From a virus (taxonomy: Duplodnaviria > Heunggongvirae > Uroviricota > Caudoviricetes): 64,000 bases of DNA. Made by a program: the position numbers. Positions 18,001-21,000 of the stretch are shown here, one piece after another. Each line of letters opens with the position of its first letter. The stretch's first letter is position 1. The stretch is taken from positions 1 to 64,000 of the IMG/VR virus record IMGVR_UViG_2778261139_000002, one strand, 5' to 3'.

Positions 18001-21000
18001 CTGCAAAGTCGCCGGTTGTGTCCGAGCTGCGTAAAGAAATAAAAAACGCGCAGGGGCAGGCTGTAAAGGATGCTGCAATTAAGACAACCGAAGTTGTGGG
18101 GACTCTCAGGGAAGAAACGACAAGAACGATTGGTGGTATTGAAACCCGCATTAGCACACTGGATTCGTCAACCAGTGAATCGCTTAATGAGGTCGACAAG
18201 CGCATCACTAAACTGGATAAAGAAGGCGGTGAGGCGTTTCTGGCAATGTGGTCAAAAAAAGCGGGAGTTGATGGTATCACTGCGGGGATCGGGATTGTCG
18301 CCGGAAAAGACAGTGAAGGCAGGCCTGTAAGTCAGGTTGCAATTTCTGCGTCGCAGTTGTTTGTCTTTGACCCGAACAACCCGGATAACACCGCCTATCC
18401 GTTTGCGGTATCAGGTGGCAAGGTTGTGATCCCGAAAGCGATGATTTATGACGCGGTGATTGAAACACTGGTGTCGCGGAAGGTTGTGGCGGATGAGGTA
18501 AAAGCCGGGGTAAGTATCACTTCGCCAGTTATCCGGAGTGCCGTTATTCAGAACGGAAACTTTCAGGTTGATTCTCAGGGTAACCTGAATATTGGAGGCC
18601 TTTTCAGTGTTACGTCACAAGGGCAACTGACAATTCGTTACTCTAATCAGAATGTAGGACTGGTGATCCGCAATGATAAAATTGAGGTTTATGATCAGAA
18701 TGGACGACTGGCTGTTCGCATAGGCAGATTACGCTGATCAGGAGGTGAGTATTGGAATACGGTTTTGCCATTTATAACAGAAATAACGTTAATGTTACGG
18801 GCGTGCTGACTCCGGTATTTTTCCTGGACAGATTTACAGCGGAGTCTGGCTCAAAGACGTACACGAATAAACCCGACGGGAAATCATTGCAGGCTGTATG
18901 TTGTTTATTTCCCTGGAATAATGTATTTGCGGATCGGAAAGTACCGAAGATAACCATTAATGGCAATACGGTGACGTGGTCGAATCTTGAGCAGGGTATG
19001 GGATCTTATATTTATACATTCTGGGGATAAGTGTCATGTATGGTTTGAGCATTATGAAGCCGGATGGCAGCGTATGGATAAGTCCAGGTTTTACGCCGCA
19101 GTGTCTGATCAACAAAGGCACCATACCGGCGACTGAAAAGTCTTTTTTTAAAACATCAATCCCGTCAGGCAAAAGTTGTTTTTTCTTTATCAGAACAGAG
19201 AAGAAGGCCGATGTCATGTACACGCATGAACAGATTGATGGATATCATGCACTAAGGCTTCATGTAATTGTCAGGGGAACGAACCCTGGTGTTACGACGG
19301 TTTATGCTTTCGCGAATATGGTTACTCCACCTTCTGAGTATGGTATCGCCATGTATAACCCGGACGGTGAGATGATTTATCATGGCGAAATGATGCTGCT
19401 TGACGCGAAGTTAATACCTGTTGATATCAAATTTGAAAAGGACCTTGGATATCCATGCGCAATCATGCCTGCACTGGTCGGGTATTATAACTGGAAAAGA
19501 ACTCCTTATGATCGACCGATTTATACCACATCCACTGGTGCTACAGGAAATAAAATATATTCCTGTGAGCATTATTCCGGTGGTGCAACATGGGATATTC
19601 GAAAGCCGTATATAGATAAGGTCTTGGTTATTAATACAGCAATGTATGATTAATAAGAAAATCTACATTAATAAAAACTTTTTATCATATCAATGCAATA
19701 TATTTGATTTATATTAAATAAAGGAAAATCGCACATTACTGTACCTTTTAATAACAGGAATAATCTAAAGATGAAAAATATTTATAAGATTATTGCGTGT
19801 GCAGTTATTGGGACGAGCATGGTAGCCATGCCAGCACATGCAGCAGAAGGAGACCATACAATTTCTCTGGGGTATGCGCACTTTCAGTTTCCGGGACTGA
19901 AGGATTTTGTAAAGGATGCGACTGCTCATAACAGGGAGACTTTCAGTCATTTCGTCAACAGAAACTACTTTTCTTCATTGGGCGAATATACAGATGGTCG
20001 GGTCAGTGGATATGAAGGCAAGGATAAAAATCCACAGGGCATTAATATCAGGTATCGCTACGAGATAACGGATGATTTTGGCGTTATCACCTCTTTTACA
20101 TGGACGCGTTCTCTCACTAACTCACAGACATTTATTGATGTGCAGTCAGCCGATCATAGCAGGAAGATTAAGAATCCGGCAGCTTCTGCCAGAACGGATA
20201 TCAGGGCGAATTACTGGAGTCTGTTAGCGGGGCCTTCATGGCGGGTTAATCAGTACATGAGTTTATATGCGATGGCAGGGATGGGCGTTGCTAAAGTTAC
20301 CGCTGACCTGAAAATTAAGGACAATATTAACAGTAGTGGTGGATTTTCTGAAAGCAACAGCACGAAAAAAACCTCCCTTGCGTGGGCTGCAGGTGCACAG
20401 TTTAACCTGAATGAGAGTGTTACTCTGGATGTGGCTTACGAAGGTTCCGGCTCTGGCGACTGGCGCACGAGTGGCGTTACTGCTGGCATTGGCCTGAAAT
20501 TCTGACCTGTATCCGGTAACCGTTTACTACCCGCTGTGATGGCGGGTTTTTTATTGTCCGTACAGGGCAAAAATCGTAAATTATGCGTGGGTGCCTTTCG
20601 GCTGATGGCTGGAGGGTGAACCTGAAGGCCTGATGTGGAAAGGCCCCGAGTCAACCTAACGTTAACCCGAGGCCCTAACACTTCGTACCTTAAGCAAGTA
20701 GAAGGTTAGCGCCTCTCTGTAAAAGGAGTCAAGCGCTATGTCGCAAAAATCGCTTATCACCGTCACAATTTGCATGACGGTTATCTTCACCATCTGGATG
20801 TTGCACGGTTCACTGTGTGAGTTCCGGCTGAATTTGTGGGGAGCGGAGTTTGCAGCGTTCTTACAGTGTAAGCAGTAGGAAAACCGCGACGGGGACGAAA
20901 GTCCCCGTCAACTGGTTGCTGAGGTTCAGCCGATATGGCACCCGTTTCAGGTGAGAGAATGAACGATAAAATTCTCCGGTATATGCAGCGTGTTGTGAGA

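Follow-up and report, generated by a model that had tools for sequence, protein, structure and literature searches.

The 64,000-nucleotide window analysed here (positions 1 to 64,000 of IMG/VR record IMGVR_UViG_2778261139_000002) very probably carries a functional type I toxin-antitoxin (TA) cassette of the Hok family, a mobile moron (accessory cargo gene) of about 390 bp situated between lom and an L0129-like gene in a 933W-type prophage. The cassette is self-contained (about 20554..20947) and comprises a 46-codon toxin gene (20738..20878, + strand), an mRNA predicted to switch between alternative folds, and a predicted Sok-like antisense RNA. The toxin gene is already known: it is annotated, catalogued and, according to the available text of a preprint, reported toxic, and so carries no weight as a gene discovery; just the absence of a mok frame is mildly new.

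The open reading frame has exactly the coordinates and peptide given in a preliminary description of the locus, and the good ribosome-binding site claimed there is the Shine-Dalgarno (SD) sequence AGGAG at 20724..20728 (+ strand), 9 nt upstream of the hok ATG and within a set of local helices that closes the hok initiation region. Profile searches, where a lack of similarity was named in that description as one of the grounds for refuting the assignment, find Hok-family similarity: Pfam PF01848 (HOK_GEF) matches residues 8-44 of the 46-aa peptide, scoring 33.2 bits where the gathering score is 22 (E = 4e-8), and PHROG 251 matches with 85.8 bits (E = 2.8e-24). The peptide is close to family size (~50 aa) and has an N-terminal transmembrane helix; its SLCEF and EFAAFL motifs, also noted previously, belong to the columns that are unchanged or nearly so in 30 homologs. 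The Hok family logo residues of a recent survey (M1, C16, T18, L30, C31, E32 and E41 in survey numbering; bioRxiv 10.1101/2025.08.07.668861) all have counterparts (M1, C12, T14, L26, C27, E28 and E37), of which L26, C27, E28 and E37 show either no variation or at least 90% conservation among 30 subfamily members. The top NCBIfam match is the HokA equivalog NF007290 (38.4 bits, cutoff 89), and the Hok subfamily model NF007279 scores 22.7 bits (cutoff 73); because both scores are under their cutoffs, the peptide is assigned to a separate subfamily, not to any of HokA to HokE. Judged by its sequence, this is a genuine Hok-family membrane toxin gene, and its identification as a type I toxin of the Hok/Gef family, encoded behind a structured leader, is upheld by the Pfam and PHROG matches and by the fold of the full transcript.

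The gene is unannotated, as had been proposed, solely in the original 933W and VT2-Sakai GenBank records, which omit it; RefSeq holds it as WP_000078907.1 with the product "Hok/Gef family protein", phage RefSeq records name the product "MokW-like host killing", and the identical peptide is entry 72_1589 in the survey of Escalera-Maurer et al. (2025-26; bioRxiv 10.1101/2025.08.07.668861). According to the available text of that preprint, 72_1589 was cloned as plasmid LRP157 and assayed for toxicity, 42 of the 45 assayed Hok homologs were toxic, and the non-toxic constructs named (19_179, 60_1482 and 69_1540) do not include 72_1589; on this text the peptide is reported toxic. Its cluster, 72, is graded "high abundance" in the same text, which states that the survey covered coding sequences only and left out Mok, Sok and mRNA structure; relative to that text, the RNA-level anatomy of the cassette and the absence of mok are supplied here. 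The reference 933W and VT2-Sakai records, still widely used, miss a second hok cassette, and as a result of this omission the hokW-sokW deletion work in Sp5 was done with a paralogue still in place.

RNA structure and selection were analysed across 38 diverged copies of the cassette. The putative hok promoter (20554..20582, + strand) consists of a -35 element TTGTCC (20554-20559), a 17-nt spacer and a -10 element TAAATT (20577-20582), of which the -10 pattern TAnAnT is at least 90% conserved in the 38 copies; its counterpart in the 933W alignment is the TAGAAT that precedes hokW. A sigma-70 consensus scan of both strands returns no sites, passing neither this promoter nor that of the Sok-like RNA described below; both promoters are called because of their conservation and their homology with hokW and sokW. 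The full-length hok mRNA would span 20589..20947 (+ strand; about 355-360 nt), as judged from the alignment of position 1 of Rfam model RF01794 to 20589 and from the extent of the conserved block. RF01794, which is labelled "sok" and is in practice a model of the hok mRNA leader, aligns over its full length to 20589-20751 on the + strand in a permissive local search of 701 nt (33.6 bits, E = 8.6e-6); at gathering thresholds Rfam gives no hok/sok match, the score for this model being 59. From 20589 the leader would measure about 149 nt: it is structured, as previously proposed, but falls short of the proposed length of about 170 nt and can barely be called GC-rich (52% G+C versus 49% for the window). 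A terminator scan of the phage context finds no canonical terminator 3' of the fold-back element (fbi), the nearest being at 21043-21060 within the next open reading frame, and the 3' end assigned to the mRNA is therefore tentative.

The full transcript folds with a minimum free energy (MFE) of -151.8 kcal/mol (z = -5.9; none of 100 shuffles folds as well). Folds, covariation and RNAalifold all point to a tac-like element, GGGUGCC UU UCGGCUGA, at the 5' end (20589..20605, + strand) and an fbi-like fold-back element, UCAGCCGA ... GGCACCC, near the 3' end (20926..20943, + strand); tac is predicted to pair with fbi in the full-length RNA and, after 3' trimming, with a ucb-like box, GAAAGGCCCC (20638..20647, + strand), that aligns with GAAAAGCCCC of hokW and, in the full-length fold, has the GAGG region as its partner. 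The tac-fbi pairing comprises 7 + 8 bp in the MFE fold; in its helices 95.9% and 82.2% of alignment cells are paired, and the inner helix has compensatory changes at seven of its eight pairs. Columns 90-92 of the alignment show covariation with their partner in fbi (double changes: 12, 12 and 11), and columns 90-91 covary with their ucb partner too (10 and 10 double changes), in keeping with the predicted refolding of the trimmed RNA, in which 20589-20599 pairs with 20638-20647. Over the full-length fold as a whole, 90.7% of cells are paired versus at most 52% for slid partners, and double changes occupy 132 cells versus 47.8 in shuffles, a count reached by none of 500 shuffles; RNAalifold, run without the fold of the window itself, recovers the tac-fbi and ucb-GAGG pairings, the initiation-region helix and the 3' hairpin. 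A hok-type mRNA switch, in which tac pairs with either fbi or ucb, is thus strongly supported by covariation. The nascent 5' end can also form a hairpin of 15 bp, possibly a metastable co-transcriptional structure of the kind that, in the R1 paradigm, keeps the mRNA from being activated during transcription, in which the partner of tac is 20607..20623 (+ strand); it is paired in 84% of cells versus at most 64% for slid partners, with covariation no higher than in shuffles.

The fold of the truncated RNA and pair counts delineate an antisense-target hairpin (20669..20714, + strand) in which GAGG (20669-20672), the homolog of the mok SD, pairs with a dcb-like GCCUC (20710-20714); the apex is hypervariable, with the loop CUUAAGCAA at 20689-20697 and a peak of variability at 20680-20689. 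In the full-length fold this target would be masked by a 3' segment (20912..20925, + strand) that pairs with 20687-20701 and includes four compensatory pairs, a parallel to plasmid R1, where Sok is reported to be in competition with the hok mRNA's 3' end (Thisted 1994). In the initiation region, UAGCGC (20707-20712) pairs with GCGCUA (20733-20738) and CUCU (20715-20718) with GGAG (20725-20728); pairing in the outer helix holds in 99.6% of cells, and each of the 14 one-sided changes in it retains a G-U wobble. The 3' stem-loop, GACGGGGAC / GUCCCCGUC (20888..20909, + strand), found by folding and covariation, has compensatory changes at five of nine pairs and is paired in 99.4% of cells; on the model of the final stem-loop in the truncated hok mRNA of R1 (PMC9841398), it is probably the protective 3' end of the processed, translatable mRNA. 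The preliminary description took this hairpin as the end of the transcript and placed the end of the locus at 20910; the hairpin is real and covarying, but the full-length RNA would run on to the fold-back element at 20926-20943, so that the transcript would reach about 20943 and the functional unit extends from about 20554 to about 20947.

Opposite the leader, fold and conservation predict a Sok-like antitoxin RNA of about 58-61 nt (20636..20696, - strand). Its putative promoter (20703..20732, - strand), called from conservation, has the -35 element TTGACT (20732-20727), a spacer of 18 nt (17 nt in most homologs) and the -10 element TAACCT (20708-20703). This -10 element matches the consensus at three of six positions and is invariant or nearly so in the 38 copies, in which the -35 element is conserved as well; the same hexamer is the -10 element of sokW in 933W, placed 7 nt before the annotated start of that RNA, and primers YO-421 and YO-597 place the sokW "pro-less" mutations inside it (PMC8621323). 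For the antisense promoter sought between 20560 and 20737 the candidate is this conserved minus-strand -35/-10 pair, which the consensus scan does not detect. The predicted RNA would have a single-stranded 5' tail (about 20696-20677), a 16-bp hairpin (20676-20661 with 20655-20640) and then UUUCC. The hairpin is stabler on the minus strand in all 38 copies (-22.4 versus -13.0 kcal/mol), is paired in 84% of cells and has 22 double-change cells versus 8.4 expected. The 5' tail varies more than any other segment, with an identity of 0.58 compared with 0.78-0.82 in the hairpin and promoter, and differs even between tandem copies of one genome. Neither the EHEC Hfq-CRAC paper (Tree et al. 2014) with its supplements nor the Pas sRNA preprint was found to report transcripts of the cassette.

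The upstream boundary of the cassette is the intrinsic terminator of lom, a stem-loop with a T-run identified by terminator scan (20529..20553, + strand); conservation across genomic contexts starts just 3' of it, at about 20554, and stops directly after GGCACCC, at about 20943-20947, and the flanks are unrelated among Stx-phage, P2-like and other contexts. 933W-like Stx phages carry the cassette, as do P2-like Salmonella prophages, which have it at their ends; it has spread to unrelated phage types, and tandem arrays occur.

Three other explanations of the locus were weighed. A decaying, non-functional relic, comparable to several K-12 hok loci and conserved merely through recent divergence of the phages, is hardly credible: the K-12 hokA leader is indeed interrupted by IS150, degenerate chromosomal hok loci have been noted (Fozo 2010), two of the 38 copies (L025 and L093) keep the open reading frame but no longer have the promoter and tac region at the 5' end, and copy L060 combines substitutions in the tac region with the weakest antisense hairpin of the set; against this, the open reading frame is intact in all 38 copies, with DNA identity among them down to about 56-60%, and is under purifying selection (median dN/dS 0.21), one pair of copies has diverged by 24% at synonymous sites with no amino-acid change, many compensatory base-pair changes are distributed across several helices, the identical peptide is reported toxic in the available preprint text, and the cassette has spread among unrelated phage types and forms tandem arrays. 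It is improbable, though less so, that the gene is a late-lysis accessory without a working antitoxin, silenced by mRNA fold-back alone and expressed from Q-antiterminated late transcripts as a holin-like helper. The orientation of hok along the late operon, just past the lom terminator, agrees with such a function, as does the help that HokW of the same phage type gives to lysis on induction (PMC8621323), and the antisense RNA is a prediction whose -10 element matches the consensus weakly and whose promoter escapes the scan; the conservation of both minus-strand promoter elements, the identity of the -10 element with that of sokW and the better minus-strand hairpin in every copy nevertheless argue for an antitoxin, as does the coincidence of the hypervariable segment, divergent between tandem copies, with exactly the expected antisense recognition tail, and the copies at the ends of P2-like prophages lie outside any late operon and have their own terminator.

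The remaining explanation, a canonical three-gene hok/mok/sok locus in which Sok blocks an overlapping mok frame and translation of hok is coupled to that of mok, is very improbable. The cassette aligns element by element with hokW/mokW/sokW of 933W, with GAGG conserved at the position of the mok SD, and a minority of close relatives (L023, L026, L046 and L007) have a 61-codon open reading frame that overlaps hok. The mok-like frame for which a search had been suggested is, however, absent from the window, which does not hold a complete hok/mok/sok locus: every one of the three frames meets a stop on the way from GAGG to the hok SD, and where a short stretch stays open as far as the hok SD, it contains no ATG, GTG, TTG or other known start codon. 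The position of the mok ATG of hokW corresponds to CTT at 20681-20683, in 37 of the 38 copies the stretch 4-12 nt past GAGG is devoid of a start codon, and 1-nt indels in the interval from dcb to the SD put alleles in different frames. The 61-codon frames begin within the ucb region, away from the homologous mok position, at an ATG that is equivalent to 20633 and is missing in Salmonella copies; long hok-overlapping frames, present in 7-9 of the 38 copies, were accordingly rejected as mok on account of their non-homologous ATG and poor retention across copies.

With no mok frame, control of the type I cassette is probably exerted directly on the hok ribosome-binding site, gated by mRNA refolding and Sok binding. 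This proposal of direct gating draws on the one-sided wobble changes in the outer helix of the initiation region and on modelled accessibility. Modelled accessibility of the ribosome-binding site passes from 0.32 to 0.38 and then to 0.30, with a direction consistent in 31 and 36 of the 38 copies and a small effect, and gives only a hint of such direct gating. There is perhaps an even chance that the whole 46-aa subfamily (cluster 72, common in Stx phages and P2-like Salmonella prophages) represents hok/sok in a form that naturally lacks mok and in which the ancestral hairpin of the mok SD and dcb is kept merely as antisense target and refolding device, and 3' processing and Sok control the toxin ribosome-binding site at a distance through competition for UAGCGC. 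No description of a mok-less hok/sok form was found in the searchable literature; if this reading is true, the subfamily is a natural test case for the dispensability of mok in hok regulation.

By analogy with R1 hok/sok and hokW-sokW, the full-length hok RNA would be stable, untranslatable and not bound by the antisense RNA; slow 3' trimming back to the hairpin at 20888-20909 would remove fbi, whereupon the trimmed RNA would refold to the tac/ucb stem and expose the target hairpin at 20669-20714. Formation of the target hairpin, it is proposed here, would draw UAGCGC (20707-20712) off GCGCUA (20733-20738), a pairing that otherwise closes SD and AUG. The Sok-like RNA, unstable and some 60 nt long (about 20696 to 20636), would pair with the target by its variable 5' tail, leading to decay by RNase III, and its binding would free UAGCGC, so that SD and AUG would be closed again; on depletion of Sok, Hok would be synthesized and would depolarize the inner membrane.

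As to the biological role, inference alone suggests that Hok may be made at prophage induction and aid killing or lysis of the host, resembling hokW; this is a tentative proposal, in which late read-through in the hok sense, head-on to the Sok promoter, would outrun Sok. It is doubtful, again by inference, that the cassette serves to kill cells that lose the prophage, and exclusion of superinfecting phages by the cassette seems unlikely.

Among the closest known systems is hokW-mokW-sokW of Stx2 phages 933W and Sp5 (Takada et al. 2021, PMC8621323; AF125520), an experimentally validated type I TA locus that occurs in this phage type, both loci being present in 933W; the RNA control of the 46-codon locus is predicted from sequence. 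Identity of the two was considered and rejected: HokW (MKQQKAM...VDYESEK, from primers and Table S2 of the survey) is encoded 13 kb away in 933W, at 58.4 kb on the minus strand, whereas the 46-aa gene is at 45.7 kb on the plus strand. The elements of the hokW locus nonetheless follow the same order, from the -10 element through the GGGUGC 5' end, a AAAGCCCC box, GAGG, GGTTAG (complementary to the antisense -10 element TAACCT) and the hok SD to a GCACCC 3' end. The antisense RNAs are alike in size and position: sokW is 71 nt long and starts 49 nt upstream of its hok ATG, compared with a predicted length of about 60 nt and a distance of 42 nt here. The differences are that HokW is a HokD-like protein of 51 aa with 33% identity to the 46-aa peptide and that hokW has an annotated in-frame mokW starting 8 nt after GAGG, which the 46-codon locus does not.

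R1 hok/mok/sok (parB; layout in PMC9841398) shares with the cassette the Hok/Gef fold family, the tac-fbi pairing of the mRNA ends with its tac-ucb alternative, the GAGG/dcb target hairpin and the protective 3' hairpin, as well as a cis-antisense RNA with single-stranded 5' tail and terminator hairpin, which is predicted here. R1 Hok is 52 aa long, compared with 46 aa, and 28% identical; the R1 leader is longer (hok AUG at nt 174 versus nt 150), mok is required for translation of hok in R1 (PMC9841398), in contrast to the cassette without a mok frame, and the R1 locus is plasmid-borne rather than located in a prophage. The nearest named Hok is K-12 HokA, the best BLASTP match (45% identity over 47 residues), which is four residues longer and shares the FTWM..SLCE and E.AAFL.CK motifs; hokA is unusable as a reference leader by reason of its IS150 insertion.

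A functional likeness to the unrelated aapA/IsoA system of Helicobacter pylori, which differs in toxin family and sequences, would apply only if the mok-independent reading is right. As Arnion et al. reportedly found in 2017, the full-length aapA mRNA is locked by long-distance pairing between its 5' and 3' ends and activated by 3' trimming. There it is the SD of the toxin itself that is sequestered, not that of a leader frame (contrast drawn in PMC9841398). Within the window the 46-codon gene is, as stated previously, separate from hokD (58655..58810), which is a true HokD sequence and lies in a separate Qin-like prophage.

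Beside lom lies a true type I toxin-antitoxin cassette of the Hok family. Its ORF (20738..20878, plus strand), with AGGAG 9 nt 5' of the ATG, encodes MSQKSLITVTICMTVIFTIWMLHGSLCEFRLNLWGAEFAAFLQCKQ in the window sequence, a peptide that matches Pfam HOK_GEF (PF01848) over residues 8-44 (33.2 bits, E = 4e-8; gathering score 22) and PHROG 251 ('MokW-like host killing'; 85.8 bits). The preliminary description correctly recognised a Hok/Gef toxin gene here and proposed comparison with hokA-E and plasmid hok: the nearest NCBIfam model, HokA, scores 38.4 bits, far short of its equivalog cutoff of 89, and identity is 45% to K-12 HokA (BLASTP) and 26-33% to Hok R1, HokB to HokE and HokW. 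Given the Pfam and PHROG matches, the sub-cutoff NCBIfam score and these identities, the 46-aa peptide is, as judged from its sequence, a bona fide Hok that corresponds to none of the named members. The gene from which it had been distinguished, at 58655..58810, is indeed a true HokD in a different, Qin-like prophage. Selection on the ORF is evident among 38 non-redundant cassette copies (100% to about 56% DNA identity), derived from 96 copies in IMG/VR, GTDB genomes and assemblies: it is intact in every one, median dN/dS is 0.21, and one pair differs by 24% synonymous divergence with zero amino-acid change.

The gene itself is already annotated, inventoried and reported toxic, and its novelty is nil. 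E. coli 2009C-3133 (NZ_CP013025.1) and Shigella phage POCJ13 show 100% identity to the window, and among 5,426 complete E. coli genomes 714 match a 461-bp query, as do 189 phage records, mostly of Stx-converting phages. The earlier label 'unannotated' holds for 933W and VT2-Sakai as first deposited in GenBank, where the ORF between lom and L0129 carries no annotation, but not elsewhere, RefSeq naming it WP_000078907.1, 'Hok/Gef family protein'. Fozo et al. (2010) had counted 14 Hok/Gef genes in O157:H7 Sakai; in the survey by Escalera-Maurer et al. (bioRxiv 10.1101/2025.08.07.668861), the exact peptide is entry 72_1589 of a 'high-abundance cluster', cloned as LRP157, 42 of 45 assayed homologs are toxic, and none of the three non-toxic ones named there is 72_1589. 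Because the exact peptide is catalogued and reported toxic and profile similarity is present, both findings that had been named as telling against a toxin, lack of profile similarity and lack of toxicity, are answered in its favour. The missing mok is the only potentially new point; no earlier description of its absence in this subfamily was found in the literature that could be searched.

In plasmid R1 the ATG of mok, the leader frame overlapping hok, lies 8 nt after a GAGG Shine-Dalgarno (SD) sequence and 58 nt upstream of hok, and mok translation is needed for hok translation (PMC9841398). In 933W a mokW is annotated at the corresponding position of the hokW locus, whereas the window locus has none. 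GAGG is kept, but the triplet aligned with the mok ATG is CTT (20681-83); 37 of the 38 copies have no ATG, GTG or TTG 4-12 nt past GAGG; in the window, each of the three frames is closed by a stop on the way from GAGG to the hok SD, and no start codon occurs in the short open stretches that reach this SD; and one-nucleotide indels shift the leader frame between alleles. From the CTT triplet, the missing starts, the closed frames and the indels we conclude that this hok subfamily probably lacks mok, and the mok-like overlapping frame for which a search had been suggested was not found. An ORF at 20633 was rejected as mok, its position being non-homologous and its ATG absent from the Salmonella copies, and is probably fortuitous: in a few copies (L023, L026, L046 and L007) a 1-nt insertion gives a 61-codon frame from the equivalent ATG that overlaps the hok start, while the window version is a short ORF, MWKGPEST* (20633..20659), with a conserved ATG inside the region of the internal box (ucb, 20638-47) and the long frame interrupted.

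The RNA 20589-20948 has a predicted fold of -151.8 kcal/mol (z = -5.9), in which its first 17 nt (tac, 20589-20605) pair with a 3' fold-back element (fbi, 20926-20943). Projected on the 38-copy alignment, the full-length fold is paired in 90.7% of cells against at most 52% with slid partners, and 132 cells changed on both sides compare with 47.8 in shuffles (none of 500 equal). In the same alignment, compensatory pairs number 7 of 8 in the inner tac-fbi helix and 5 of 9 in the 3' hairpin 20888-20909, and four occur where the antisense-target region (20687-20701) is masked by pairing with 20912-20925. A terminal hairpin had been described; the one at 20888-20909 is present, but it is probably the processed-end hairpin, and the transcript probably runs to about 20943. 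With the 3' tail removed, the predicted structure changes: tac now pairs with ucb (20589-99 with 20638-47), and a hairpin forms at 20669-20714, its GAGG paired with GCCUC (20710-14). Two 5' columns show covariation with fbi and with ucb alike, which in the alignment is the 'coupled covariation' signature expected of the hok folding pathway. RNAalifold, with the window's own fold unused, recovers tac-fbi, ucb-GAGG, the 3' hairpin and a UAGCGC/GCGCUA helix closing the hok start region; a metastable 5' hairpin is predicted by the fold, its covariation not being significant. Rfam RF01794 aligns at full length with 20589-20751 (33.6 bits, E = 8.6e-6), under its gathering threshold of 59, and has no match at that threshold at hokD or elsewhere in the window. 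Although named 'sok antitoxin (CssrC)', RF01794 aligns with the sense strand of hok, from the 5' end of the mRNA as far as the start codon; effectively, it models the hok leader (tac-ucb stem plus target hairpin) and not the antisense RNA, and strand calls based on it can mislead.

The suggested search for an antisense promoter yielded a predicted one on the minus strand (20732-20703), with conserved TTGACT (20732-27) and an almost invariant -10 hexamer, TAACCT (20708-03); the two lie 17 nt apart in most copies, 18 nt in the window. In 933W, TAACCT also precedes the annotated start of sokW by 7 nt, and the primers of PMC8621323 place mutations abolishing sokW function in it; by registration with sokW, antisense transcription would start at about 20696. 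The predicted Sok-like RNA has a single-stranded tail, then a 16-bp hairpin (20676-61 with 20655-40) and UUUCC. This hairpin, which shows compensatory changes at its base, is better on the minus strand in all 38 copies (mean -22.4 versus -13.0 kcal/mol) because G-U pairs there become C-A mismatches on the other strand. Variability within the cassette peaks in the 5' tail (mean pairwise identity 0.58 versus 0.78-0.82 for hairpin and promoter), and between tandem copies in one genome tail identity is 0.27-0.60 and hairpin identity 0.71-1.0, a divergence that fits selection against antitoxin cross-talk. Because a simple-consensus scan detected no antisense promoter and no transcripts for the locus were found in the data examined, we only infer antisense expression.

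By analogy with R1 and hokW, full-length hok mRNA would be stable and closed; slow 3' trimming back to the 20888-20909 hairpin would allow refolding; the Sok 5' tail would pair with the target hairpin and trigger RNase III decay; and depletion of Sok would let Hok be made and damage the membrane. Without mok, we propose that the switch may act on the hok ribosome-binding site itself, UAGCGC (20707-12) either pairing with GCGCUA (20733-38), closing the SD and AUG, or being pulled into the target hairpin. In the closing helix 99.6% of cells are paired, and wobble is kept in 14 of 14 one-sided changes. Modelled SD-AUG accessibility is 0.32 for the full-length RNA, 0.38 after trimming and 0.30 for the trimmed RNA with Sok bound, the two changes having a consistent direction in 31 and 36 of the 38 copies; the helix and the accessibility values lend the proposal modest support. 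By analogy with hokW and from the sense orientation in the late operon, a first guess is that Hok might be produced during prophage induction; prophage retention and phage exclusion are alternative roles.

Positions 1 to about 36.4 kb of the window cover the late half of a 933W-like prophage (holin, lysozyme, terminase, portal, N4-gp56-type capsid, tail fibres, cor, lom, hok, L0129-like genes and an 8.4-kb LPD38 gene), inserted beside what remains of a truncated 4Fe-4S protein gene within the ynfEFGH region; host genes extend from about 36.4 to 46.6 kb and the Qin-like prophage begins at about 46.7 kb. The hok gene is co-oriented with the late genes, just past the lom terminator (20529-20547; terminator scan). 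Conservation begins at about 20554 and ends directly after GGCACCC (about 20943-47), with unrelated flanks beyond, which marks a self-contained cassette. In Salmonella the cassette lies at the outermost edge of P2-like prophages, beyond gpU, gpD and ogr/delta and bordering on host genes, either alone or in tandem arrays of two or three copies spaced by about 490-500 bp (L096-L098 at 1505, 2003 and 2501; L099 and L100 at 2501 and about 2991; L090-L092). Among non-enterobacterial organisms, records of a Xanthomonas pisi contig (L003, 857 bp), a Planococcaceae MAG (L004) and Vagococcus sp. WN89Y (L006, 226-kb contig) carry this enterobacterial cassette at 76-100% protein identity; these most likely reflect contamination or mis-binned enterobacterial contigs, not real distribution. 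In L025:2811-3231 and L093:2311-2731 (alignment A2) the hok ORF is intact and the Sok region and fbi are kept, with unrelated sequence in place of the promoter and tac region; such 5'-truncated cassettes could not form the tac-fbi lock. Downstream, the first 8 codons of a hypothetical gene (20935..21336, RefSeq start) overlie fbi. Because of this overlap, the end-to-end alignment of PHROG 610 (1-124 of 124) with the shorter 125-aa product from ATG 20959, and the GGTGAGAG preceding that ATG, the annotated start is probably 24 nt too early.

The hokW-sokW system described for Sp5 and 933W (PMC8621323) occupies a separate locus: its toxin, HokW, has 51 aa and is HokD-like (primer YO-357; Table S2 entry 35_712), in contrast to the 46-aa Hok of the window, and in 933W hokW lies at 58.4 kb on the opposite strand, 13 kb from the 46-aa hok. 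These phages therefore hold two hok cassettes, unrelated to each other (AF125520.1, 45.66 kb and 58.46 kb; L102 and L103), of which the original 933W-type records annotate hokW/mokW/sokW only, and a second hok was therefore still in place when the delta-hokW-sokW phenotypes published for Sp5 were measured. No hokW copy occurs in the part of the prophage covered by the window (1 to 36.4 kb). Near the right end of this prophage, a match to sRNA-Xcc1 (RF02221; 35996..36084, minus strand; 69.1 bits, gathering score 53) lies with the ant gene on one side and the truncated 4Fe-4S protein gene on the other. The Qin-like prophage encodes the DicF sRNA (51521..51572, minus strand; 76.7 bits) and, upstream of cspB, a cspA-type thermoregulator 5' UTR (62214..62606, plus strand), and also holds dicB, hokD, rem and cspF.
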